DNA of 64,000 bases, taken from Narcine bancroftii. Its lineage: Eukaryota. The stretch's first letter is position 1; each line of letters starts with the position of its first letter. The notes beneath the pieces are model-generated. The model searched no databases. It worked only from the letters and a program-made list of their open reading frames with translations, and was not told the origin of the DNA. The stretch covers positions 188,418,001 through 188,482,000 of the forward strand of contig NC_091469.1 in assembly GCF_036971445.1 (NCBI RefSeq). Direction: 5' to 3'. Made by a program: the position numbers and the translations under genes. Below, one piece after another: positions 12,298-59,584 of the stretch.

Positions 12298-14366
12298 TAT
12301 GCATACATTATTAGAATAGACATTTAGCAATTTAACATTGATACAATGCAATTAAGCACAGGCTGCAGTGAGAGTTTCAGTGATGGCAGATGTAGAACTT
12401 TTTTAATGACGGGAATAAATGCTGTGTTCTGTTCTAACATTTTTAAAAAAATGATCAATGAACTAGTTCAATTAGTGATTGGAATCTTCCTGAATTCTGA
12501 CATTTTTCATATTGTTATTGTTCAAAGATCTCTGGTTTTAAATCTGTCAACTTTTTGTATGGTAGGCCATTGTTTGATGCTCTGAATGCTATATTTAAGT
12601 AGTGGAGTGAGAAAAATAAAGACATGCCTCTTAAATCAGTTTGCCCTGTGGTGTCAATTGAAGTGCATGTCTGTATCCAACTGAAGGATGTTTAGTTTTT
12701 AATTTTAAGCGTGGGAAAATCCTATCAAGTGTACATTGAATAGATCTATCCTTTCTACAAATCTACAAATATCTACAAAACTTGTAGAAATTAATAAAGT
12801 AAGCATATTTGTTAAAATATTTGGAGAACTAAATGAAAAGGAAAGTTTCTGAGGTCCCATGTTTAGAATGATTGGTTTCAAGGTCATTTGGTTTTAAACG
12901 TTTTTTCCTTAATGTTGATTTGAATTGATGAACCACTTGTACGCGGCACTGAAAATAATTTTATTCTTTGATTAAAACAGTGTATATTTTGTAATGAAGA
13001 CTCTCAAATGGCATTTCAATTCCCTTTCAAATTTCAAAGGGATGGATATAACTGGCAGATACTATGTTGGTTTTATCTTGTTCAGAAATGCTTCATTTAT
13101 AAATATAAGCTTCAATGTATGAACCTGAGCAAAGTTGATTATGCAGTACAGTATTGAGTTTACATGGTTTGTGTGTTTTCCATTCCAATGAAATGTGAAC
13201 AGAGGCCCCAGAATACTAGATTTTTTGCTTTCAGGGACCTCTGCTGGGTTACTGTCAAGTTGCTGTAGATCTTTCAAGTCACATTTCTGTTTCCCATAGA
13301 TATGAGGGTTTTTGTTAAATTGCTCACTTTTGCCAAAATTATGAATGCAATTTTATGAAGTATTTTTAATAAAAGGAAGAAAGAATATTATTGAAATTGG
13401 GCTGAAATGGGAAATTATTTGAGCAGATGACAAAATAGTTCTTAAGAGATTAATTTAAAAATCCCTCTCAAAAGAATAAAGGAAGGAACAGAATTTAGAG
13501 AAAGAATTCTAAACTTTAGAACTAAGGTAGAGAAGGCAAGGATGAGCAAGTAGCTAGAGTTCAACAGATGCAGATGACTTGCATTATAGGGTTGGAAAAT
13601 GTCGGGTCATGGAGGATGGAAGCCGTGGAGTTGGTTCAAAACAAGGATAAGAACTTTAAAATTGTGTATTGTTTAACCGAGAAACAGTGTACAATGGGAA
13701 GCCAGGGAATGATGGGTAACAGAACTTGTTAATGTTAAGATATAGACAACAGAGTTTAAGCTGAATTTGTGTTTTAAGGATGGTTGAGTAAGAGAATCTA
13801 TTGAAATAATTAAGACTAAAGATGACAAAGACATGGATGATAGTATCAGCGGCTGATGAACTGAAGGAGAGTCAGAGTCAGGTGAAGAGGTGGGCCCATC
13901 TAGTTTACAAATCATATCGATGTGAACTTGAGTCAAATATAAAACCAAGGTTGTGAAGAAAACATATGACTTTCACATAGAATGAAATCTGAAATTTAAT
14001 AAAATTGCTGGAAATATTACCAGGTTAGGCAGCATCTGGAACTGGAAACTGAGTGAAAGGTTTAGATTGAGGACCTTTTATGCATTAGCCTAGAAAAGGT
14101 ATTGGGTCTGCAGATCCGGTTTGTTTTTTGATGGGGATTGATGTTGGTGGCTGGTCTGTCCAAAGTTTGATGTTGGATGAGAGACAGTATGATAATTTAG
14201 AGACTGGTGGTGGTAGGGCAGAGAAAGGGATGGAAAAGAGATGACTGGGTATAGTTGGGACATGTGCGTCAAGATTATTGGTGATGTTATGTTGTCAGTA
14301 TTCACATGGGAGGCCATAAATAATAACCAGACTGCCATACTCTTTTTCCTCTGATTCCTTTTCCAG

Positions 14367-14802
14367 GACACACAGGAATTTCTCCGATGTTTGATGGATC
14401 AACTTCATGAAGAACTTAAGGAACCTTTGACAGAGAGAGATTGTGACTCTTCGAGTGACACAGAAGAAAAGCGAGATGGGGACAGGAGTCCTTCAGAGGA
14501 TGAGTTTCTCTCATGTGACTCTGGCGCAAGCAGTGATAAAGGGGAAGGGGAAAACAGAAGCAAATGTTCCTCTGAGAAGCAGATTGAAACAGAGCTATTG
14601 ATCCAGGATGAATGTGGAAAAGGAATTTCAGAAAAAGAGAGGCAAAAGGACAGAAAATTTTCATGTGGCCACCATAGACTGGGGTTAGTGGATGCAATTG
14701 ATGAAGATGCAGATGTAGACACATCTTTGAGTTCGGGAGATGCTGGAGGTTCTGGTGATGCCAGAACTGCTATGGTTTCTAGAAGTCCTTGCAGAGCACC
14801 AG
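14367..14802 (+). CDS. USP20: USP20 exon F (QQD box and acidic insert)
   Basis: ccag|GACACA...CCAG|gtgttg; [20 protein letters not shown]...RSPCRAP; matches ORF 14391..14828. Confidence 0.94.
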
Positions 14803-15237
14803 GTGTTGTATTTAAATACTTTTCTTAAGCTTACTTTGACCTGTTCAATTAGTGAACCTTGTGTAGTGTTTACTAACGCAATCTTGTACCATTTCAGTAT
14901 TTTACCATTATGTACAACAAATTTCATGACAAGTTTATCCAATAAATTATAAATTGTTATCTACCTTTAATGGCATTTTACACATACCTGTAGAATGAAT
15001 ACAGAATGATATTCAATGATCTGAGATAACAGGCTTGAATTCTAAATTTTCTCTTATGGGAATTTTAAGAGAAACTGAATCTTTATGGGAACAATTCTTC
15101 TCTTCACTGATAGCTTTATTGTGATATTTGAAATGAAAGCTAGATTCTCCCCCAATATAATATGCTGTAAAGCCAGTCATCCTGCTTCAGTGTTGGAAAA
15201 GATAACCTTTTTGATTTCATTTGTTTGCCTGATCCAG

Positions 15238-15375
15238 AACCTGACAATGATGTAAACATTCGCCGCACGTCACGATCTTGCAGCCCTATCCATCAAGAAC
15301 TTCATTCCAAGTTGTCCAGCAGCCCACCTCGATCGAGTCCAATGAGGGCAGTGTCACCATTTTCTTTGAAGAAAG
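15238..15375 (+). CDS. USP20: USP20 exon G
   Basis: ccag|AACCTG...AAAG|gtactc; EPDNDVNIRRTSRSCSPIHQELHSKLSSSPPRSSP...LKK. Confidence 0.93.
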
Positions 15376-16654
15376 GTACTCTTCCAAAGTGCTATTATAA
15401 TAATTTCCTTGTGATTTTTTTAAAAAACACTGGCATTATGGCAAAAGATAAAATACAATATACTAATAAATTCTGAATCTATGTTCTTTTGGTCATGTGA
15501 TTTTTTTTTAAAAGAAAAAACTAATTGTACCTCTTCAAATGAATTTATTTGCAGTTCAGAACAATGTTTCTTCCTAGTTTTCTTAAAAGCATTCTTAAGC
15601 AACTGAAGTTGTCAGATTGACCAAATGACAATTTTTTAGTAATGTGCTTGTGAATAGGCAAAACCACATATTGTACTCCTGAAGACACAAAATAAGGTCT
15701 TCTTTTAAGTAGATAAATGCAAATGATTAGGAGCATATTTTTGATTTTAATATTAAATACTTTTTGTTTTAAAGTATGTTGATACAATCAAGAAAACATT
15801 AATTTGTCTACAGATTTCAACTTGATTAATATTATCCTCTTTCAGGGCCTCTTCACTGTCATCCAATTTAGTGTGCCTACTTACATGACACCTTTTTCTC
15901 ATCTGTCTAGTTGTAGCCAGAGGATTTCATGTAATGACATTGCTTCCTATTCACCCCATGAATTAATCTTTAAACTTAGCGTCCATAGAAATCAAAAGGC
16001 TGTTAACGTTTTGAGCCTTCCTCAGAAGTGCCGAAAATCAGTCAGTCATGTGAATAAACTAGCGCAAGGGGGAAGGGGGAGGAAGACTATTTTAAAGTGT
16101 TCTTGACCAGCCTTCCACATTTTATTCATCACAAACTTGAGATGAAGTAAAACTCAAACCTTTAGTGTTCTAACTCGCACTGCCTAATTTGGTTAAAAAC
16201 CTTGCGCCTGTTTTCTGACCTCTTAATTTTAAAATATCAATCCTTGTTTTAAAATACTTCATCCCTAACTGTCTCTGCAGCTACTCCAGTCCTGAAACAC
16301 TTGAGATGCCTGCATTCTTCTTTTTGGTCTTGTGACCATCCCTGGTTTTAATTGTCTCTCCACCTGGCCATGAGTTATTCCAAGATTGTAAAGTGGCAAT
16401 CTCTTAAATATTTCTGGCTATCTGTGTCTTCCTCCTTTTTAAAAGCTACATCTTCAATCATGTTTGATCATTTTCCTGAATATATTGTCTTGAGGTTTGG
16501 TGTCAAATTTTGTTTTGTTATTATTCTGTATTGTACTCTGCAACTCTGTTACATAGCAGTATTACACAAATACAATTTATGCATGTTGGCGTGAATTTTA
16601 TTATCTCGATTTAGTCATTTTACAATGTGTAATTCATTTTTTTTCCTCATTCAG

Positions 16655-16767
16655 CGCAACTTCTGTTGTCAACCAAGAAGAAAAGGCAACCCAAATATCG
16701 CAGTGTAATTTCTGATATTTTTGATGGGTCAATATTGAGCCTAGTCCAGTGTCTCACCTGTGACAGA
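16655..16767 (+). CDS. USP20: USP20 exon H
   Basis: tcag|CGCAAC...GACAGA|gtaagc; ...[24 protein letters not shown]. Confidence 0.95.
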
Positions 16768-18086
16768 GTAAGCCTCTTTGAGCTAATATATTATAATTTG
16801 GTGTAGAATCCTGCAGTAATTTGGAGCTATTCATTTAGTTTTATTATTATTCTTTTGTAACTGCAGCACATCAAGTAGTTTCCCCTCAAAGCTTTAGTTA
16901 ATTAAACTTATTTAATAACTAACAATCACTGACCCCTGTGGAGCTGATGCATTTTACTACATTTATCCTGTAAATTGAATGCTCTTTCCATATTAACTTG
17001 CTAGTTATTATGTCAGTTCATACGTCTAAACATGAAATAAATATTTAGACCTCTGAAATTTAAAAATTACATTTCAAAGGTTTTTAAAAAGCACCATCAA
17101 TTGCCCTCCATACCTATCTTAATCCATCCATTTCTTTTTGCTTGTTATGACCTATTTTGTCTGTCTGTTTCTATTTCATTGCCTGCATTAAAGGTTAATT
17201 ATCACAGAATGTCAATTGTTGTAAAGCTTAAAAAAAAGCATATTTTCTCTTTAATGATTAATTCAAGTAGCTTTTGCACGACAGTTTTTGAAGAAAATGT
17301 AAACACTGGATCTTGACTCCAGAAAACAGCACCAAAAATACAGAATGTGGTGAATAGGATTAAACTGGTCATTTTTTGATTTGGAAGGCTGTGATCTGTG
17401 GTGTGCCACAGAGATTGGTTTTGGAGTCCATGTGTTTGCATACCGTATTCGCCGATGATACAAAGCGAGGTGGTGTCATGAAGTGTGAGAAGAATGCAGA
17501 GAGGTTTCAGATGGATATAGACAAATGAATATCAGCCATTGTTGATTTGAATATTGAAGTAGGTATAAGCAGCCAAATGATCTATTTCTGTTTCTAAAGT
17601 TCATAAGTATAAAATTGATCTCCACTCTTTAATTTTTTTTTAAACTGGTTTTACACCTTCCATTGTAGTCATATGGCATTTACAAAGATGTTGAATTTTT
17701 GGTGGAGAAACAAAAGAATGAATATGTTGTGTGCAACACAGGTAAATAAAGATGGTTGGGGACCAAGTTGGTTCTTTTCCAACTTGAACAGCCACATTCC
17801 AGCAGCTTTTAAACATATCATTTCTGGACAAGCTGAAGAAGTCTGCTGAGAAATATATCATAGAATTTCCATTTCACTTAAACAGCGATAAGACTGGTGT
17901 TGCATTACTTATTTCCAAATGTTTCAGCAGGGGTGGGTGGATAAACAATTTAACAGCATAAACCAGAAGTTACTACCTGTGAGGTATCATTGTACCATGA
18001 ATTAGGCAGAAGTGGAACCTACTTCTGTCTCACCATTAGCATGCATTAAATGATGTGAAGTTGCTTTATTTATGCAGGAGATATAG

Positions 18087-18331
18087 TCTTTTCTTCTTTG
18101 GCTTGGCGGACGAAGATTTATGAAGGGGTAATGTCCACGTCAGCTGCAGGTTGGTTTGTGACTGACAAGTCCGATGCAGGACAGGCAGACACGGTTGCAG
18201 TGGTTGCAGGGGAAAATTGGTTGGTTGGGGTTGGGTTTTTCCTCCTTTGTCTTTTGTCAGTGAGGTGGGCTCTGCGGTCTTGTTTAAAGGAGGTTGCTGC
18301 CCGCCGAACTATGAGGCGCCAAGATGCACGG
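18087..18331 (-). mobile_element. RTE LINE 3' fragment
   Basis: Near-identical to the 3' ends at 42375 and 48402. Confidence 0.88.
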
Positions 18332-18439
18332 TAGTAAAACTCTAGTTATCCACTATAAACCTCTATATATTTAAGCCTGCAGCAGAAAACTCCCACTTGT
18401 CTTAGTAGCTGTTTAACAATGAGATCATTATTAATTACT

Positions 18440-18766
18440 TGCAGCTGCCTGACACAGGAAACGTCCATCAAATTCTGCGATCGAGCAAACAGCGGGCAGG
18501 TTGAGACGCCCACTCCCATAGGCTACAGGAATAGCGGTTGAATCAACCAGTCACCGCCAGAGGATTGCAGAGGGTCCATTCTGGGCCCACTCATCCAGTA
18601 CAGCCACTTGGCAACCAGCCCTGCTCAAGCCACACCCCAGAGGTGGTGCAGCTGGCTGCCTATAAAAGGAAGCTGCAGCCCAATAAAGTCAGTGTTGATT
18701 ACACTCTCTTCGTGTGAGAGTCTGCTTTCTTCAACTTCGTGCTTTAACTGTAGCAACCCCACTACA
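18440..18766 (+). mobile_element. Solo LTR
   Basis: TGCAG...CTACA termini, TATAAAA 18661, AATAAA 18682, flanks tact/tgct (3 of 4 match). Confidence 0.7.
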
Positions 18767-19506
18767 TGCTCACAATGTACTTCTGGTAATGAAAAATGAC
18801 TGCTAAAAGTATGCAGCATCTTTAAGGATTTAGTTATTGATCAAATTCCACATTGGCTTATCATCGGCATATGTTACAAGTTCAAATCTCAAACTTGAAC
18901 CAATATCCTCTGAATCAGAGATGGGATCGCTACCACTGAGCGAGGGCCAACTTTTCAGAAAATCAGGATTATTTAACATGACTTTTTTTTTGCAGTTAGT
19001 CAGGATTTTGTATGTCATAATAGAGAATACTGACATAACTTGACCTGCAGTAATTAATAAATGCACTCACAAATTAAATTAATGAAATTGATTCAAGGCA
19101 AGTCAAAACAAAATAAACTGTTTGGGATTAAATTTCCACTTTTCTATAGAAGTACAAGATTATTTTATGCAATATGTCATGCTAAATTGTTTTTATTTAA
19201 TGTTTTAAAACTTCTTCAGCTTCTATGTGTAGATCCCGGAAGATTATAATACTTGATTAAAGAGAGCCACATGGTATCAAATGGTTGCTCTGAACAATAA
19301 GATAAATAGATACAGTATATAATTGAAATTCAAACAACAAAAGGCAGAGAATATCAAAGGATGTGGAGAAGAGGTTAGGACACAATGTTACAGTATATTG
19401 AAGAAGATGCAGTTTACTTGCATGAAGTATTGTAATTGGATGATGCACCAAAACATTAGCAAATTTGTATCTTTTAATTTAACATGATAAAACTATCCTG
19501 TTACAG

Positions 19507-19679
19507 ATTTCTTCCACAGTGGAAACATTTCAAGATTTGTCTTTGCCAATCCCTGGTAAAGAGGACCTGGCTAAATTACATGCATCCATCCACCAAAATT
19601 TACCTGTGAAAAGTGGCACCTGTGGTGATGCTTACACTACACAAGGATGGGTAGCATTTATTATGGATTATATTAGAAG
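19507..19679 (+). CDS. USP20: USP20 exon I
   Basis: acag|ATTTCT...AGAAG|gtaaat; [25 protein letters not shown]...[13 protein letters not shown]. Confidence 0.96.
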
Positions 19680-20409
19680 GTAAATGGTGTTTCCAAAACT
19701 GGTTAGATTTCAGATAAAGCTCCTTCACACATTGCTTTAGTCCATTTTTGTTTAAGTTTGTCTTACCATTCTTCAGTTTGCTTTTACTAAACATTGGCAT
19801 ACCAATTTATAAAATTGCATTTTTTTTAATTAAAAGCAAGTATGAAATTTATCAAAAGGCATACTGAACAAGTGGATACTTCATGAAATGGGTCTGTGCA
19901 CCTGATCTGCCATTTACATTCAAGCAACATTGCTATTTTGCCTGTATGGTGATTTGGATGTTTTGCCTTTTATCTATTCTGCTGTGACACAGACATTGAA
20001 CATTTTAACCATTCTTGAATCTCAATTTGTAGAATCTCTCCAAACTGATGGAATTATTACTATTGCAAGTGCAATTGTATTAAACTTTCTCATTCAGCAA
20101 AAGTGAGTCATTCCACCAGTCAGTGTTAACTGCAGATTTTATTTTTTTTTTTTTTTTTTTTTTACTTCCATCGAAAGCTTCAAATGCCCGTAATGAAATA
20201 AAGTTTTAAAAACTTGGTTAAGTTCATATTAGCAGATAAATAAATTAATTTGTTATCAATTGAAATTTGGTAACAGAAAAGAGTAACAAAAAATAGATTT
20301 ACAAAATTTAGAGTTATGTTAAATGCTTGCCTTCTTTTCATGTCTTTTTTTTTGTTTTATTTATGTTCTGCTTGCAACTGGATATGAAAATACAGGTTTT
20401 GAGTTGTGA

Positions 20410-20586
<177 letters not shown>

Positions 20587-21287
20587 TGAACTATTTTCAT
20601 AGAGGTGGATAGACAACATGAACACACAACAAATTTCCCATTTGCACAAGCTTTCACAGTTGAAGGGTGAATGTAGTAGTACTCTTCACTCCTTTTCTAA
20701 TATTTATGCCAATCTCTTTTCATCTTCCAAACTCATTCTGGATATACACTTGCATTCTGCATCCACACCTAATATTTGCATTGAATGCTACAACTCCATA
20801 TGGTTCAAGCAGTTCATTGTTTGAATATTTTAAACTTTTCCCTTTAATTGACAGACATGTATTGATGGAAGTATTTTGGATCCAAAATGTCATGAGGTGT
20901 TTCATTTTGTTTTTCCTCGTTCCCCAAACTGTAAAGATGTAGTGAGAATATCATTTGATGTGTTCCTTTGAGCATGCATTAATAAATAATGAACCAAGCC
21001 AAATCAACAAATGGAATTAGTATAAGACTATAGCATTTATCTATCAGACTTTTAATTGTAAAATAATGAAATTGCTTATTTTTTTCCTCTCTAAACAACT
21101 ATACCTGGCATGGCAGTAAATTTCTGTCTCAATGAATGTAAAATTTCATCTTAGAATTGGTATAAAGGCTGTTGCATTTGTTTCAACCACTTATTTATTT
21201 TTAGGTGGATTTACTTTGGAACAAAGAATGTGGTGGATAGCACATTTAGTGAGTTGGTCATACCACAACTTGAGAATAGAGAAAGAT

Positions 21288-24200
21288 AGGGACTGGATGA
21301 CCAATAGCAAGAGCAGTACCAGGAAGGTAGTGCAGGAATCTTCTGTAGTCATCACCCTCCAAAACAGATATACCACTTTAGATATTGTTGGGAGTGATGG
21401 CCCATCAGGAGAAGGCAGCAGTAGGCAAGATCATGGAACTGAGTAGATGTGCAAGAGGGAGAGAAAAAATGAGCAGTAGAGCAATAGCTATAGGGGATTC
21501 TATAGTAAGGGGAACAGACAGGAGCTTCTATGGCTGCAAACAAGACTCCTGGATGGTGTGTTGCCTCCCAGGTGCAAGGATCAGGGATGTCTCAAAGCAG
21601 CTGTAGGACATTCTGAAAGGGGAGAGTGAACAGCTGGCTGTCATTGTCCATATTGGTACCAAGAAGAAAATGGGATGAGGTCCTACAAGATGAATATAGG
21701 GATCTAGGAGTAGGACCTCAAAAGTAATAATCTCTGGATTATTACCAGTGCCACAAGATAGTCAGAGTTGAAGTAGCAGGATAATTAATGAATATGTGGC
21801 ATGAATGGTGGTGTAGGAGCAAGGGTTTCAGTTTCTTGGGGTATTGGAATATGTTGTTGGGCAGATGGGACCAGTACAAACTGGACAGTCTACATCAGGA
21901 CAGGGCCAGCATAGAGGTCCTAGGGAGATTGTTTGCTAGTGTCATTGGGGAAGGGAACTTATAAAGAAAGAATGAGGAAGGTGGTACAAAGACCAAAGCT
22001 AGAGTTAGGAAAGAAAAAAAAGGTCTGAAAAGTCAAAAACAAAAGATGCAGAGGTCACTAAATTCTAAAAGGAAATGAGCACCAGGGCACTTTATCTAAT
22101 GGCCGTAGTATTAGAAACAAGGTTAGTGAACTTGAGGTGAAAATCAGTACCCAAGCATATGATTTAGTGAGCATAACAGAAACATGGTTGCAAGGTGGGC
22201 AACTAGATATGAAAATACAGGTTTTGAGTCGTGACTTTATCTCATTACGAATAATTTTGATTCATCTTGGTATTTGTGCAATTTCCATTGCAGGTTTGTT
22301 GTGTCATGTATCCCAAGCTGGTTTTGGCTGCTTTTTTTGCTGCTGATGAGGGTATCAGGTAATACGAAAAGAGACTAAGGTAAAGTTTTGGTGGGGTGGC
22401 GCTCTTAATTAGGGAAGAGATCAAGGCAATAGTGAGAGACAATACAAGATCCAAGGAGCAGAATGTTGAGTCCATTTGGGTTGAGATTAAGAATAGTAAG
22501 GGGGGGGGGGGGGGAAGAGAAAATAAAAATCACTGGTGGGAGTTGTCCATCACCCATCAAATAACAATAGCACAGTGGCACAGGCCATTAACAGAGATAA
22601 ATGAGGGATGTAAGAACGGAACGACAGTTGTCGTGGGGGGCTAACTTTCATGTAGATAGGGAAAATCAAGTTGATCAAGGGAGTCTGGAGGATAACTTCA
22701 TAGAATGCATCTGCAATAACTGTCTTGAGCAGCATATTAAGGAACCAACAAGGAGAATGCTATTTTAAATCTAGTATTGTGCAATGAGATAGGTAAAATT
22801 AACGATCTTGTAGTTAGGACCCTCTTGGAAAAAGCGATCATAGTATGATTGAATTTCTCATACAGATGGAGGAGTAATAGATTTAAAACTAGTGTATGAT
22901 GCTTGAACAGGGGAAACTACAACAAGATGAGAAAGAAATTGGACAGTGTGGACTGGGAGCACAGGTTAGTTGGCAGAACAATTGAGGAACAGTGGAAGAC
23001 TCAAAGATTTTTCACAATGCTCAACAAAAATATATTCCTGTTAAAAATGAGGGCAATAAGAGAAGGAAGCATCAGTCTTGGTTAACTAAGGAAATAAAGG
23101 AAAGTATAAAAATTAAGAACTAGTGTACAAAGTACCCAAGAGTAGTGGGAAACTGAAGGATTGGGAAAACTAAAAGGCAGCAAAGGAGAAATAGATGGGA
23201 AATAAGGAAAAGGAAATAGGATTATGAAGGTAAATTAGCATTAAAATATAAAAACAGCAAAAAAATTTATAAATATATAAAACAGGAGAGTGGTTAGAGT
23301 CAACATCGGACCCTTGAAGATGAGAAAGGGAAATTGATAAAGTAATGAGGAAATGGCCTGGTAACTATCAGTAGTTCGTTTCACATCTGTAGTTGTGAAG
23401 ATGCTTGAAGCTGTCATTAAGGATGAAATAGCGAGATATTTAGAACTAGGGTTTTCATCAGGCAGACACAGCATAGATTCAGAAAGAGCAGGTCTTGTTT
23501 GACAAACCTGCTGGAGTACTTTGAGGATATAACGGGTGCGGTTGATAGAGGGGAACAGGTTGATGTTGTATATTTGGATTTTCAGAAGGCGTTTGATAAG
23601 GTACCGCACAAGAGAATTGTAAGATAGAGATGAATGGAGTCGGGGGAAGTATATTGGCCTGGTTTGAGGATTGGTTATCTGACAGAAGGCAGAGAGTCAG
23701 GATAAATGGATGTTTTTCTGATTGGCAGACAGTGGTAAGGGGTGCCGCAGGGGTCATTGCTGGGCCTGCAGCTGTTCACCATTTGCATTGATGATTTGGA
23801 AGAGATGTGAAGAGGCTGCAGAAGGATATAGTTATGTTAGGTGAGTGAGCAAAGGTCTGGCAGATAGAGTACAGTAAATGAGGTTAATCACTTAGGTAGG
23901 AAAAATAGAAGAGCAGATTATTATTTAAATGGTGAAAACTTATAGCATGCTGTAGTGAAGAAGGACTTGGGAGTGCTTATGCAAGAATTGCAAAAAGTTG
24001 GGTTGCAAGTACAACAGTTTATTAAGAAGGCAAATGGAATGTTAGCCTTCATTGCTAGAGGAATTGAATTCAAGGGCAGGGAGGTCATGCTGCAACTATA
24101 CAAGGTACTGGTAAGGCCAGAACTGGAGAATTCTGAGCAGTTCTGTCTCCCTAGTTGAGGAAGGATATACTGGCCTTGGAGGCAGTTCAGAGGAGGTTCA

Positions 24201-24626
24201 CCAGGTTGATCCTGGAGATGAGGGGATTAACCTACAAGGAGAGACTAAATCTCCTAGGATTATGCTCAAATTCAGAAGAATGAGAGGAGATCTTAGAGAA
24301 ACACAAGATTATGAAAGAGATAGAGAAGATAGAACTAGGAAAATTGTTTTCACTGTTAAGTAAGACCTGAACTAGAGGACACAGCCTCAAGATTCAGGGG
24401 AGTAGATTTAAAACTGTTGAGGAAAAACTTTGTCCCAGGGAATCAGTTGAGGCTCCTTCATTAAACATATTTAAGGTTCAGTTAGATATATTTTTACATA
24501 AAGGAATTAAGGGATATGGGGGAAAAGGCAAGTAGATGGAGTTGAATAAATGATCAGATCAGCCATAATCTTGTTAAATGGCTGAGCAGGCCAGATGGCC
24601 TACTCCTGCTCCTATTTCTTATGTTT
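21288..24626 (+). mobile_element. Decayed CR1 LINE, near full length
   Basis: ORF1 esterase (IGDSIVRG...CLPGARIRD), APE (ITETWL, ESIWVEI), RT remnants (KKANGMLAFIARG, LVRPELE), tail cctactcctgctcctatttcttatgtt. Confidence 0.9.
22199..22349 (+). pseudogene. Partial duplicate of USP20 intron end plus exon J inside a CR1 element
   Basis: Direct copy of 20374-20555: 95 intronic nt with 6 mismatches, then 56 exonic nt identical apart from a 31-nt internal deletion. Confidence 0.93.
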
Positions 24627-24854
24627 TTAATGTAGGTGTACAGCATGCATTGTTAATACTACAAAGAAATAGAGGTCCGACGATAGAGCTCAATGTCTGG
24701 TGTAATAGTCACACAACTCTTCTTTAGGAAGTTAACATTTTTTCCTCAAGTATTACAAAATTGTAAGCAGATTAAAAATTTTATTACTCCAGAATTGGTG
24801 TTTTACAGGTGGTTCTTTTCCCTCAGAAGGTCTGAATCAGGAACTGCATTAATT

Positions 24855-31081: not shown

Positions 31082-32139
31082 ATTCCCACCAAATTCAATA
31101 AAATATGCTCTGGTGGGGACAGGCTTGTCACTATGTGCTGTTGCAATAAATATGTCATACTCTTGATCAAAGATAAGCCAGTTCTCAGCTACATTGCCCT
31201 CGAACAGGAGTGGGTCGGGCTGTCTAAATCCATCTGGCTTTATGACAGCTGCAACACGGTGTTGGTTACTCACTTTTAGTCATTTGGAAGGCCTCAGGCT
31301 TAGGATGCTTGTGATCCCGGTTCTAACACCATGTTTGTTACTGCGTGCTGGATAACAAGACAACTACTAAGTGTAATGTTAAGAAAACAGTTTACTTTGT
31401 ACACACAGGAGAGGGAACTTCTTACATGGCATACAATCCATACCAAAGCTTGTTTTTTCACCACTGCGCCCTCGCCGAGCTCTTCCATATGCAGAGCCCT
31501 GTTGTACATACGGTGGCTTCAGCGCAATTGCAACAGGTGCAGAGCAGCCAATGGCAGCAGCTGTCTATTAGGGGATGATCTCCCTGTTTTCTAGGGCCCT
31601 GTGCCAGTACTCTGCTCCCCTGGAGTCTGCAACCCCTCGTGGCTGCTGCCAATCATAGGCGCAGCCAACGTGGGCACAGACCCTATGATCACGGGATTTT
31701 AAATAAAACTACAGGCCTTTCAAAGCCTGTGCGGATCTGACGGCAGTTGACTGCTCGATTGGACCCCGTAGACTCGCTCCCCATGGGTCTGCACCAGCGG
31801 CAGTGCTGCCTTTTTTGTCGTACAAGACCATATAACAAGACCTGTAACAAAATATCTGCTCCCTTAAAATTGTTGAACTTCTTAGAGGCATTTTTTATTT
31901 GTCCTTACAGCTCACTATCCTGTTATTTTAATTTTCTGCCTCATCTTGAAATGACAAAAATAGTTATTAAATGTCAGTTATTCCACACATATCCTTGGTA
32001 TGAAATTACATGTTAAGCTGCCATTGCACTGTCAGCTGCTGTCTTTCAGAAGAGACATTATACCAAAGCACCATCTGTCACTTGTGCCAACAGTCCCAAA
32101 CACTGCTTCAAAGAAGAGCAGAATAAAAGTAACGGAATA

Positions 32140-32840: not shown

Positions 32841-32874
32841 GTGACAATATGTACAGCTGTGAAAAATGCAAAAA
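32841..32874 (+). CDS. USP20: USP20 exon K (34 nt)
   Basis: poly-T gcag|GTGAC...AAAA|gtaagt; GDNMYSCEKCKK. Confidence 0.95.
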
Positions 32875-42374: not shown

Positions 42375-43368
42375 TTCTTTCTCTTTGGCTTGGCTTCGCG
42401 GACAAAGATTTATGGAGGGGTAATGTCCACGTCAGCTGCAGGCTCATTTGTGGCTGACAAGTCCAATGTGGAACAGGCAGACATGGTTGCAGCAGTTGCA
42501 AGGGAAAATTGGTTGGTTGGGGTTGGGTGTTGGGTTTTTCCTCCTTTGTCTTTTGTCAGTGAGGTGGGCTCTGCAGTCTTCTTCAAAGGAGGTTGCTGCC
42601 CACCGAACTGTGAGGTGCCAAGATGCACGGTTTGAGGCAATATCAGCCCACTGGCGGTGGTCAATGTAGCAGGCACCAAGAGATTTCTTTAGGCAGTCCT
42701 TGTACCTCTTCTTTGGTGCACCTCTGTCTCGGTGGCCAGTGGAAAGCTCACCATATAACACGATCTTGGGAAGGCGATGGTCCTCCATTCTGGAGACGTG
42801 ACCCGCCCAACACAGCTGGATCTTCAGCAGCATGGACTCGATGTTGTCGGCCTCTGCCATCTCGAGTACTTCAATGTTGGAGATGAAGTCGCTCCAATGA
42901 ATGTTGAGGATGGAGCAGAGACAACACTGGTGGAAGCGTTCTAGGAGCCGTAGGTGATGCCGGTAGAGGACCCATGATTCAGAGCCAAACAGGAGTGTGG
43001 GTATGACAACAGCTCTGTATATGCTAATCTTTGTGAGGTTTTTCAGTTGGTTGTTTTTCCAGACTCTTTTGTGTAGTCTTCCAAAGGCACTATTTGCCTT
43101 GGCGAGTCTGTTGTCTTTTTCGTTGTCGATCCTTGCATCCAATGAAATGGTGCAGCCGAGATAGGTAAACTGATTGACCGTTTTGAGTTTTGTGTGCCCA
43201 ATGGAGATGTGGGGGGGCTGGTAGTCATGGTGGGGAGCTGGCTGATGGAGTACCTCAGTTTTCTTCAGGCTGACTTCCAGGCCAAACATTTTGGCAGTTT
43301 CCGCAAAACAGGACATCAAGCACTGAAGAGCTGGCTCTGAATGAGCAACTAAAGCGGCATCATCTGCA
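42375..43368 (-). mobile_element. RTE LINE 3' ~1 kb, open RT C-terminal frame
   Basis: ORF 42444..43394: ADDAAL...FTYLG...AKANSAFGRL...WAGHVSRM...CxxC. Confidence 0.92.
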
Positions 43369-48143: not shown

Positions 48144-50723
48144 CCGTGCCTTCCAGAATGTTTGGGACAAAGACACTTTTTTTCCCCTTTTTTTGCCCCT
48201 GTGCTTCACTGTTCTAAATTTGTTATCAAACAATTCATGTGATTAAAGCACACATTCCAGATTTTATTCAAGGATATTGTATACATTTTGGTTTGACCAT
48301 GTAAAAATTACAGCACTTTTTATACATAGTCCCGTCATTTCAGGGCACCATAATATTTGGGTCATATCCCTGTTATGTATATTAAAGTAGCCATGTTGAG
48401 TCTTCTTTGGCTTGGCTTCGCGGACGAAGATTTATGGAGGGGGTAAAAAGTCCACGTCAGCTGCAGGCTCGTTTGTGGCTGACAAGTCCGATGCGGGACA
48501 GGCAGACACGATTGCAGCGGTTGCAGGGGAAAATTGGTGGGTTGGGGTTGGGTGTTGGGTTTTTCCTCCTTTGCCTTTTATCAGTGAGGTAGGCTCTGCG
48601 GTCTTCTTCAAAGGAGGTTGCTGCCCGCCAAACTGTGAGGCGCCAAGATGCACGGTTTGAGGCGATATCAGCCCACTGGCGGTGGTCAATGTGGCAGGCA
48701 CCAAGAGATTTCTTTAGGCAGTCCTTGTACCTTTTCTTTGGTGCACCTCTGTCACGGTGGCCAGTGGAGAGCTCGCCATATAACACGATCTTGGGAAGGC
48801 GATGGTCCTCCATTCTGGAGACGTGACCCATCCAGCGCAGCTGGATCTTCAGCAGCGTGGACTCGATGCTGTCGACCTCTGCCATCTCGAGTACTTCGAC
48901 GTTAGGGATGTAAGCGCTCCAATGGATGTTGAGGATGGAGCGGAGACAACGCTGGTGGAAGCGTTCTAGGAGCCGTAGGTGGTGCCGGTAGAGGACCCAT
49001 GATTCGGAGCCGAACAGGAGTGTGGGTATGACAACGGCTCTCTATACGCTTATCTTTGTGAGGTTTTTCAGTTGGTTGTTTTTCCAGACTCTTTTGTGTA
49101 GTCTTCCAAAGGCGCTATTTGCCTTGGCGAGTCTGTTGTCTATCTCATTGTCGATCCTTGCATCTGATGAAATGGTGCAGCCGTTTTGACCGTTTTGAGT
49201 TTTGTGTGCCCGATGGAGATGTGGGGGGGCTGGTAATCATGGTGGGGAGCTGGCTGATGGAGGACCTCAGTTTTCTTCAGGCTGATTCCAGGCCAAACAT
49301 TTTGGCAGTTTCCGCAAAGCAGGACGTCAAGCGCTGAAGAGCTGGCTCTGAATTCAGCCAGCTGAATGGGCTCAGCCATGTTGAGTACTTTGTAGCATAA
49401 TCCCTTGCATGCAATAACTGCTTGAAGTCTGTGATTGATAGATATCATCAGATGCCTAGTATCTTCTCTGATGATGCTCTCCCAGGCCTTTACTGCTCCT
49501 GCTTGTTTTGGGGGGCTTGTCCCCTAAAGTTTTCTCTTCAGCATATGGAAGGCATGCTCAATTGGATTTAGATCAGGTGACTGGCTATTCAAGAATTTTC
49601 CAGTTTTTAGATTTGAAGAACTCCTTTGTTGCTTTAACAATATGTTTGAAATCATTGTCTTGCTATAGGATGAAGTGCTGTCCAAGAGTTTGGAGGCCTC
49701 TTAAACTTGAGCAGATAAGATGTTTCTCTACACCACAGGATTAATTTTTCTACTGCTATCAGCAGTTTCGTCATCAATGAAGACGAGTGGGAAAGTACCT
49801 GTGGCAGCCATATATGCGCAGACCATAACACCCCCACCACCATGTTTCACAGATGAGGTGATATGCTTTGGATCTTGGACAGTTCCTTTGCGCGTCCACA
49901 CTTTGCTCTTGCCATCACTCTGATACAGGTGAATCTTGGTCTCATCTGTGCACAAGATATTTTCCAGAATTTTTCAGGCTCTCTTAAATATTTCTTAGCA
50001 AACTGTCATCTGGCCACTCTGTTTCTGTGGCCAACTCATGGTCTGCCTCTTGCAGTGTAGTCTCTGTATTTCTGTTCATGAAGTCTTCTGCAGACAGTGC
50101 TCATTTTCCCCCTCCACACCTGCCTCCTTAAGAGTGTTTTTGATCTTTCGGACTGATTGGGGATTTTTCATCATTATGATGAGAATATTTCTGTCATCAG
50201 CAGTGGAGGCCTTCCTTGGCCCAGCAGTGGAGGCCTTCCTTGGCCTACCAGTCCCTTTTTGATTATAAATCTCACCAGTACGCTCTTTCTTCTTATTGAT
50301 GTTCTAAATTGTTGATTTTGTTCATCTTAAGGTTTGGGCGATGCCTCTTACTGTTTTATTGTTGCTTTTCAGCCTGATCATGTTATCTTTGATGTTCATT
50401 GGCACAATTCTGCTCTTCATGTTGAAAAATGGCAACTACAGACTCCAGAGGTGATCAAAAACTTAGAAGCAATCTTATCTCTTATACCTGGACTAATAAA
50501 GCAATTAAACACATCTGTTAACCCAAATGTTCCTGAAAATGGGGAACCTTATATTAAAAGTGCTGTAATTTCTACATGGTCAAACCAAAATGTATACAAA
50601 TAAAATCTAGAATGTGGTCTTTAATCACATGTGAATTGTTTGATTATAAATTTAAAACTGTGGAGCACAGAGGCAAATAAGGGGAAAAAAGTGTCTTTGT
50701 CCCAAACATTATGGAAGGCACTG
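48144..50723 (-). mobile_element. Tc1 DNA transposon (long TIR, IR/DR type), decayed, with RTE insertion
   Basis: TA-flanked ~200-bp TIRs (gtgccttcca.aatgtttgggacaaagacac); transposase motifs TDETK, SVKHGGG.VMV, QDND, SPDLNPIE on minus strand. Confidence 0.92.
48402..49373 (-). mobile_element. RTE LINE 3' ~1 kb nested in Tc1
   Basis: TSD AGCCATGTTGAGT at 48389-48401 and 49374-49386; highly similar to the 42375 copy. Confidence 0.93.
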
Positions 50724-56573: not shown

Positions 56574-56881
56574 TATAAACTTTTCTGTGGGAAAGTCACA
56601 GCAAGGGAAAGAGAGAGAGGAAATAAATAGCAATAGCAGCCAATTTTTAAACAGCGTGGGAAAGTTGGTAGTGCTATAGCACACAATTTATAAAGACCAT
56701 GGGGTAAAAAGCAGTGGCAGACCTGACTTCCCAGAATATTTGTATATTGTGCGCAATAGCACTATCAACTTTCCCATGCTGTTTAAATTGTACACAATAG
56801 TGCTACCAACTTTCCCATGCTGCTTAAAAATTGTCCACTATTGGTTTTTATTCCTAGCACTTTCCCACGGTCCTTTATATA
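56574..56881. mobile_element. Palindromic MITE-like element
   Basis: Arm ttttaaacagcgtgggaaagttggtagtgcta versus two tandem reverse-complement arms (caactttcccatgctg.ttaaa); outer gtgggaaagt / actttcccac. Confidence 0.65.
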
Positions 56882-58641: not shown

Positions 58642-59187
58642 GTAAGAAATATTTGATGGAGATGTCTCCAGTAAATCAAATAGATTGGCAGATTCCCTGA
58701 ATTCTAGTGAAGTACATTCAGAACTGTATTTTTATTTGGACAATTTAATACCTTTTTTTTTAAAAAGTGAAGCTATACAGAAAATGCCACTACTTATTAA
58801 GACTCTGATCTTAAAATCAGTAGACTTGGCTCATGTTTGATATATGTGCATTTATAGGCAGTCTTAAGTATACATGGCAGGTAAAGGAATTTACACAAGT
58901 TATGGCAATCAATGTGAAGTTAAATAGCTCCAAATTAGAGAATATTTTTATCGTCACAAAAATATTATGTGATTGCTAGATTTACTTTTTTCTGAAGTGT
59001 TGAGGAAAGTATGGCATTGCTGAAGTATAAGAGAGAAGTTGGAAGGGGCAGAGTTCCCAGCAGATTGATTACACATAGATATTGAATGGAGTAAACAGGG
59101 AGTAATTGGCCTTTTCTGACTGTGGACTCTTTTAGAATATTTTGCAGTAAAAACACCAAGAAGTTAAAGAAACTGAAGTGTATATAT

Positions 59188-59555
59188 CAGTGGTTCTCAA
59201 CCTTTTTCTTTCCACTCACATACCACTTTAAGTAATTCCTATGCGATTGGTGCTCTAATTAGTCAAGGATTGCTTAAGGTGGTATCTGAGTGGGAAGGGA
59301 AGGTTTAGGATCACTGCTCTAGATCCAGTTGTTACTGAAATATTTTGCTTGAGAAAAATTGTCATTGGCCCATTTCCTTTAGAGTTATGAAACCATGGGC
59401 ATAATGAGTCAATTAGATATGATTAAAACAGTTCAACCTTTTTCTTTCCACCCACATAGCACCTTAAGCAATCCCTTACTAATCACAGAGCACCGATGGC
59501 ATAGGGAATAGTTAAAGTGGTATGTGAGTGGAAAGAAAATGGTTGAGAACTACTG
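59188..59555. mobile_element. hAT (Charlie-like) MITE with long TIRs
   Basis: CAGTGGTTCTCAACC...GGTTGAGAACTACTG; 8-bp flanks gtatatat/atatatat; TIR unit internally duplicated. Confidence 0.85.
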
Positions 59556-59584
59556 ATATATATACTTGAAAAGAGGTGAGATGA

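Follow-up and report, generated by a model that had tools for sequence, protein, structure and literature searches.

Positions 22199-22349 of the window, the 64,000-nt stretch of DNA that we analysed, hold a two-piece local copy of a USP20 fragment, which has replaced 21 bases of a LINE. We consider it probable (about 0.7) that this patch arose by microhomology-primed template switching during the repair of a DNA break, and that the exon-like segment created by it is a pseudo-exon that is skipped or included weakly. According to the mechanism we propose, a break would have occurred in the resident LINE, and the left LINE end, terminating in GCA, would have primed on position 20374. Synthesis would have covered 129 nt, then jumped forward by 31 nt at a G and continued for 23 nt more, after which the copy would have rejoined the LINE at an A. 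Exon J of USP20, from which the fragment was copied, would stay constitutive, and any leaky inclusion of the 65-nt copy would follow exon J, meet a TGA at 22344 and be removed by nonsense-mediated decay (NMD). The initial annotation had proposed a templated repair insertion, and this proposal is supported by the anatomy of the junctions, the empty sites in sibling LINEs, the younger-looking copy and the presence of similar patches nearby. Our literature searches retrieved no report on this locus and nothing relevant on alternative splicing or poison exons of USP20.

Anatomy of the copied fragment and its insertion site

The gene hosting the patch is cartilaginous-fish USP20, whose exon I is 93-95% identical to shark USP20. 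We placed 19 introns with GT-AG ends in this gene, and the USP20 exons found were all intact and conserved. Three plus-strand exons frame the patch: the upstream exon I (19507-19679), which ends in phase 2 with the donor AAG/GTAAAT (a slash marks the splice position); exon J (20469-20563), which is 95 nt long with the donor AAG/GTGAGT; and exon K (32841-32874), the next constitutive exon, which is separated from exon J by an intron of 12.3 kb.

The patch, which is on the plus strand, reproduces the acceptor region of exon J in two pieces totalling 151 nt, and its source lies intact 1.7-1.8 kb upstream. Segment 1 (22199-22327) copies 20374-20502 with 123 of 129 positions identical; its template consists of 95 nt of intron ending in the exon J acceptor (20374-20468, plus strand) and the exonic stretch 20469-20502. 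Segment 2 (22327-22349) copies 20533-20555 with 23 of 23 positions identical, and the 31 letters of exon J between the two pieces were skipped. These matches bear out the earlier description of a 151-nt copy of 20374-20555 with a 31-nt deletion. The possibility that the skipped 31 nt represent a spliced-out intron was rejected, since its ends would be GG..AG or GG..TA and its length is too short. The mismatches between patch and template, at 22205, 22230, 22248, 22250, 22251 and 22273 (-89, -64, -46, -44, -43 and -21 from the acceptor), amount to six in 95 intronic nt and none in 56 exonic nt. The initial counts were correct in this respect, but the exonic zero is not significant (P ~0.21 for a neutral copy; Fisher 0.085) and gives no indication of purifying selection on the copied exon. 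A genome search with the patch, which ignores very common words, returned only the source and the copy (two candidates, both scored). A third template considered at 20189-20204 (inverted, 15/16) was not significant (E 0.49-0.76).

The patch lies within a decayed LINE on the plus strand (21222-24628, ends approximate), which is sense to the gene. The CR1 label previously assigned to this element agrees with its endonuclease motif and 3' end, both of which we take to be CR1-type, but its RVT_1 match (E 3e-5) falls below the curated cut-off. Compared with its siblings, the element also has a large internal deletion at 23358-23360.

We searched with the flanks plus the patch, scored the best 40 of 1382 candidates and fetched 28 sibling loci, 27 of which were distinct. 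L017, which is without the left flank, and L025, which duplicates L023, were dropped from the site count, leaving 26 copies. The results showed a 21-nt spacer at the homologous site in 24 of these 26 copies and a shorter spacer in the other two, while the insert itself was present in none of the 26. Only four of the 151 patch letters are common to LINE and template (GCA on the left and A on the right); therefore, given the sibling spacer and the empty site, 147 new bases replaced 21 LINE bases. We rejected the idea that the LINE family had captured the fragment and spread it, as the fragment occurs at two genomic places only and in 0/26 siblings.

The junctions carry microhomologies of 3, 1 and 1 nt, namely GCA on the left (22199-22201, plus strand), which is common to LINE and template, G at 22327 internally and A at 22349 on the right, of which the 1-nt overlaps at the internal and right junctions could be due to chance. 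No target-site duplication or poly(A) was found at the patch. It thus displays the features by which templated insertions are recognised: an intact template, junction microhomology and a short target deletion without target-site duplication or poly(A). A 5-bp hairpin at 22187-22203 spans the left patch junction and may be either chance or a trace of synthesis-dependent end joining.

Splice signals and possible inclusion after exon J

The candidate pseudo-exon (22294-22358, plus strand) is 65 nt long and follows the duplicated acceptor with 56 nt of exon J and 9 nt of LINE. Its donor, CAG/GTAATA (22356-22364, plus strand), is unchanged LINE sequence. Like the 95-nt exon J, the candidate is phase 2 in and phase 1 out; the exon arithmetic, the phases and both translations given in the initial annotation were recomputed and were all correct. 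A second, weaker LINE donor, AAG/GTAAAG (22377-22385, plus strand), closes an 86-nt phase-matched exon that contains a stop. In the 23 siblings aligned there, the donor 9-mer is identical in 11 and its GT is kept in 17. Because the 9-mer is identical in these 11 siblings, the donor shows no adaptation.

We scored the splice sites with position-weight models derived from 33 true introns (19 of USP20 and 14 of USP33), which are crude. The candidate acceptor scored 11.4, equal to that of exon J, and the last 20 nt of the two are identical. The candidate donor scored 8.4 compared with 10.6 for exon J; it exceeded 15 of the 33 true donors and was equalled or exceeded by 6 of 689 GT sites in the intron. 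Within the J-K intron, 47 pseudo-exons had an acceptor and a donor that each exceeded the 10th percentile of true sites. The candidate tied for the best summed score among them, and 5/47 were phase-matched and stop-free. The segment sharing this best sum is a 62-nt pseudo-exon at 31911-31972, which is likewise phase-matched to exon J and stop-free. The designation as a candidate exon therefore stands in so far as the segment ties for the best pseudo-exon in a crude local model, but its donor is plain LINE sequence and weaker than that of exon J.

The copy was also pasted at 20,000 random positions of the intron, and a donor was sought within 150 nt. A usable donor was present in 41% of placements, a phase-matched one in 13% and one that was also stop-free in 4.5%; for donors scoring at least 8.4, the corresponding values were 5%, 1.6% and 0.5%. 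This combination of a close, phase-matched and stop-free donor is uncommon, but the candidate was selected in hindsight out of many thousands of patches, and matching phases bring no protection as long as exon J is retained. The copy keeps four of five yTnAy branch-point-like motifs and none of the three GAA motifs of exon J; the absence of GAA is a weak argument, as it is shared by 3 of 18 true exons. An internal AG lies 24 nt into both exon J (20493) and the copy (22318); its use would remove eight codons in frame, and its score is poor (-1.8).

Of 16 sequencing runs considered, five are presumably RNA; the four best DNA runs, which may stem from the source sample, contain 94-95% of the words sampled from 14300-22500. 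Contigs of four runs (X5-X8) were aligned to 19300-24800. The cover was swamped by other LINE copies, with the bins of exons I and J empty or nearly so under a filter that omits some records. Among the 15 of 96 contig joints listed, with this near-empty cover of exons I and J, none touched 19679, 20563, 22294 or 22358, and no listed contig piece spanned the patch in the poorly covered aligned region, which ends upstream of exon K. In run X8, which comes from another sample, pieces matching the host LINE exactly lie to the left and right of the patch (21799-21985 and 22845-22995), and one contig of this run joined 22201 to 22349 through a short spacer, a structure indistinguishable from a sibling copy.

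If the candidate were spliced in after exon J, the reading would be 17 residues followed by a stop. Two TGA triplets (22344-22349, plus strand) stand in the frame used in this case, and the first, at 22344, has nine introns downstream of it, so that the transcript is a predicted NMD target; a stop well upstream of a later junction is also the sequence hallmark of a poison exon. In view of the USP architecture, a product truncated at this TGA would also lose the later catalytic residues. The copy could accordingly be a newborn poison exon that follows exon J in a measurable fraction of transcripts and lowers USP20 output through NMD, an outcome that we regard as unlikely. The acceptor matching that of exon J over its last 20 nt, the median-strength donor 65 nt further on, the top rank among the pseudo-exons of the intron and the stop that likewise results from the weaker donor at 22379 are all consistent with it. 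However, the USP20 exons found are intact and conserved, and high inclusion would therefore presumably be costly; the donor has the plain LINE sequence, every GAA motif and one branch-point-like motif have been lost, and nothing points to regulation.

A broader version of this idea appears quite improbable, namely that one repair event built a working exon from a host-gene acceptor and a LINE donor, that this exon is now a lineage-specific poison exon tuning USP20, and that thousands of patches in the 1-2 kb range continually supply cartilaginous fish with new exons. Were inclusion true, the locus would represent a clean, datable, one-step exon birth in which template, empty site and junctions are all readable. 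The arrangement resembles the exonization of intronic transposable elements, including chicken CR1, described in the accessible text of PMC2911107, in that a splice site is supplied by an intronic LINE, here in sequence only. It differs in that the host gene contributes the acceptor and the larger part of the exon. LINE exonization is rare according to the same portion of that source, which gives 53 LINE exons for 65,035 intronic LINEs in chicken.

Age, template and frequency of local patches

The relative age of patch and LINE bears on whether a resident element was repaired. Between the host LINE and the sibling majority, 126 of 1729 sites differ (7.3%; 6.4% near the patch), compared with a patch divergence of 2.5% per branch. 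At equal age, 15-17 differences from the template would be expected and six were observed (P 0.002-0.006) if the source intron is neutral. The same test with a constrained source intron gave P 0.09-0.17, and gene conversion could also shrink the gap between patch and template, weakening the dating. Since the age difference is significant only under a neutral source, these sequence comparisons favour, but do not prove, a patch later than the LINE, that is, the repair of a resident LINE.

An origin from RNA would involve either a LINE reverse transcriptase that switched to USP20 pre-mRNA during insertion or a cDNA patch placed at a later break. The copy is sense to the transcript, it combines intron and exon as unspliced RNA does, and the host LINE lies ~0.7 kb from the template. 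Patches of RNA origin that show microdeletion and microhomology are also known from the accessible part of PMC5110952, and with a constrained source intron the age gap loses its significance. Nevertheless, we consider RNA as the template rather unlikely. With a neutral source, the patch seems younger than the LINE; comparable local patches are found in both orientations, as would fit a DNA template; and the RNA patches described in that part of PMC5110952 derive from distant loci.

The frequency of local duplications was assessed in a non-random sample of 1,063,800 bases, which comprised the window flanked by 200 kb on either side, together with the region of USP33 and two 200-kb blocks chosen arbitrarily. 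Pairs were required to show at least 90% identity, to lie 0.2-10 kb from each other and to have no further match in the sample. The results showed eight two-copy local duplications of 89-478 nt including the USP20 patch, the other seven being four direct and three inverted pairs. Nine pairs were found at any distance, with a separation of 0.9-2.0 kb in six of them, while two cross-contig pairs reached 90% identity and no such pair reached 95%. A genome-wide search with three of the other seven pairs returned nothing beyond the two matches for two of them, and for the third two strong matches accompanied by three weak partial ones. One of the seven sits inside a repeat. This 478-nt patch (C8:150154843-150155320) has its template 2 kb downstream, a short deletion and microhomology; its empty site was seen in one repeat copy on C11, and its anatomy is the same as that of the USP20 patch. 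Local templated patches are a recurrent feature of this genome, because the sample holds eight local pairs, one of which shares the repeat-insertion anatomy of the USP20 patch. The rate besides the USP20 patch is 6.6 per Mb (95% interval 2.6-13.6), and the number of local repair patches in this genome is estimated at 9,000-45,000 from this non-random 1.06-Mb sample. Against this background, the USP20 patch is notable only for having caught an exon start beside a ready-made donor, and the clustering of template distances at 0.9-2.0 kb may serve work on germline repair better than this locus does.

With regard to known systems, the USP20 patch most likely works like the complex germline templated insertions in the accessible text of PMC8421209. 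It shares with the complex multi-template class of MMB-TI/MMBIR presented there an identifiable template, more than one piece, at least 1 nt of microhomology, a return to the original strand and the status of a fixed germline variant. Unlike the yeast events cited in that text, whose templates lie within ~100 bp, the template is 1.7-1.8 kb away. The patch also resembles the class 2 TSIPs of PMC5110952, as far as its accessible part describes them, in its size of ~150 nt (73-414 bp in that source), its microdeletion, its microhomology and the lack of target-site duplication and poly(A). Their templates, however, are distant and proposed to be RNA-derived, whereas the USP20 template is local.

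Hypothetical replacement of exon J and the wider gene context

Used between exons I and K in place of exon J, the candidate reads as 21 residues followed by GDNMY. This replacement would delete the 20 residues at 531-550 (P0003 numbering). At 18 of these positions, at least 92 of 98 full-length homologues carry the same residue, and from residue 533-534 the C-terminal core stretch aligns with solved USP4 and USP8. The protein would likely be misfolded and inactive. Using the candidate for exon J raises the best Kyte-Doolittle mean over 19 residues from 1.19 to 1.93, because the AAFFAAD codons are read in the +1 frame as LLFLLLM, the copy being frameshifted after 11 codons. Judged from these codons, the hydrophobic peptide is a frameshift by-product. 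The 18-residue hydrophobic run noted initially does raise the hydropathy, but 11 of its residues are native and it includes S, C, P and S. We searched for the new peptides of either product in 149 homologous proteins, including 32 cartilaginous-fish USP20 entries, and found them in none of these protein lists, which NMD transcripts would escape. Three of the 32 entries (P0130, P0131 and P0134) end like the last exon of the window.

The initial annotation had envisaged that the copy may replace exon J as a mutually exclusive exon and possibly yield a more membrane-bound and catalytically impaired USP20. Matching phases, an open frame, the increase in hydropathy and a configuration uncommon by chance fit this idea, but the evidence as a whole argues strongly against it, and we hold it to be highly improbable. 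Exon J keeps an identical acceptor and a better donor, the residues that would be removed are near-invariant and form the start of the USP4/USP8-aligned core, the LLFLLLM run merely reflects the shifted frame, and the peptide occurs in 0/149 proteins. Four other phase-matched, stop-free pseudo-exons exist in the same intron, and no significant complementary elements link exon J with its copy. A search for a mechanism of exclusion (steric spacing, competing RNA pairing or U12/U2 incompatibility) found none: the spacing is 1.7 kb, the sites are GT-AG, and there is no significant inverted match. As for membrane binding, the accessible text of PMC11262213 describes human USP20 as tethered to the ER through FFAT motifs and VAP, with no predicted transmembrane domain.

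The nearby exon copy with matching phases is reminiscent of the tandem exon duplications and mutually exclusive exons in the accessible part of PMC8373072. Those exons are whole, homologous, mostly ancient and conserved, whereas the USP20 copy is truncated, frameshifted, lineage-restricted and without a donor of its own; mutually exclusive exons comprise a whole exon with both splice sites, and here 56 of 95 nt were copied. An assembly error as the source of the duplication is likewise very doubtful: none of the reads and contigs inspected crosses the patch junctions, but mis-assembly would not be expected to produce six substitutions together with a 31-nt skip, a clean replacement of 21 nt and three junctions with microhomology.

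The exon of USP33 that corresponds to exon J (on C11 near 143805300, minus strand) seemingly starts ~7-8 codons later, at SWFW. The bases upstream of the AG of that exon read FIFCFP, resembling FVVSCIP, and there is no AG at the position of the USP20 acceptor. This later start presumably recalls the short human USP33 isoform. A literature search for a USP33 Golgi splice variant with a catalytic-domain insert found no paper, and the accessible text of PMC8020466 contains nothing on a membrane-binding insert. Elsewhere in the USP20 introns, imperfect palindromes of ~390 and ~230 nt lie at 59176-59567 and 56622-56852, respectively, and are possibly small inverted-repeat elements. The stretches 42382-43342 and 48404-49353 are 960-nt repeat copies that are 92% identical, 6 kb apart and equally oriented; a shorter relative lies at 18092-18332.
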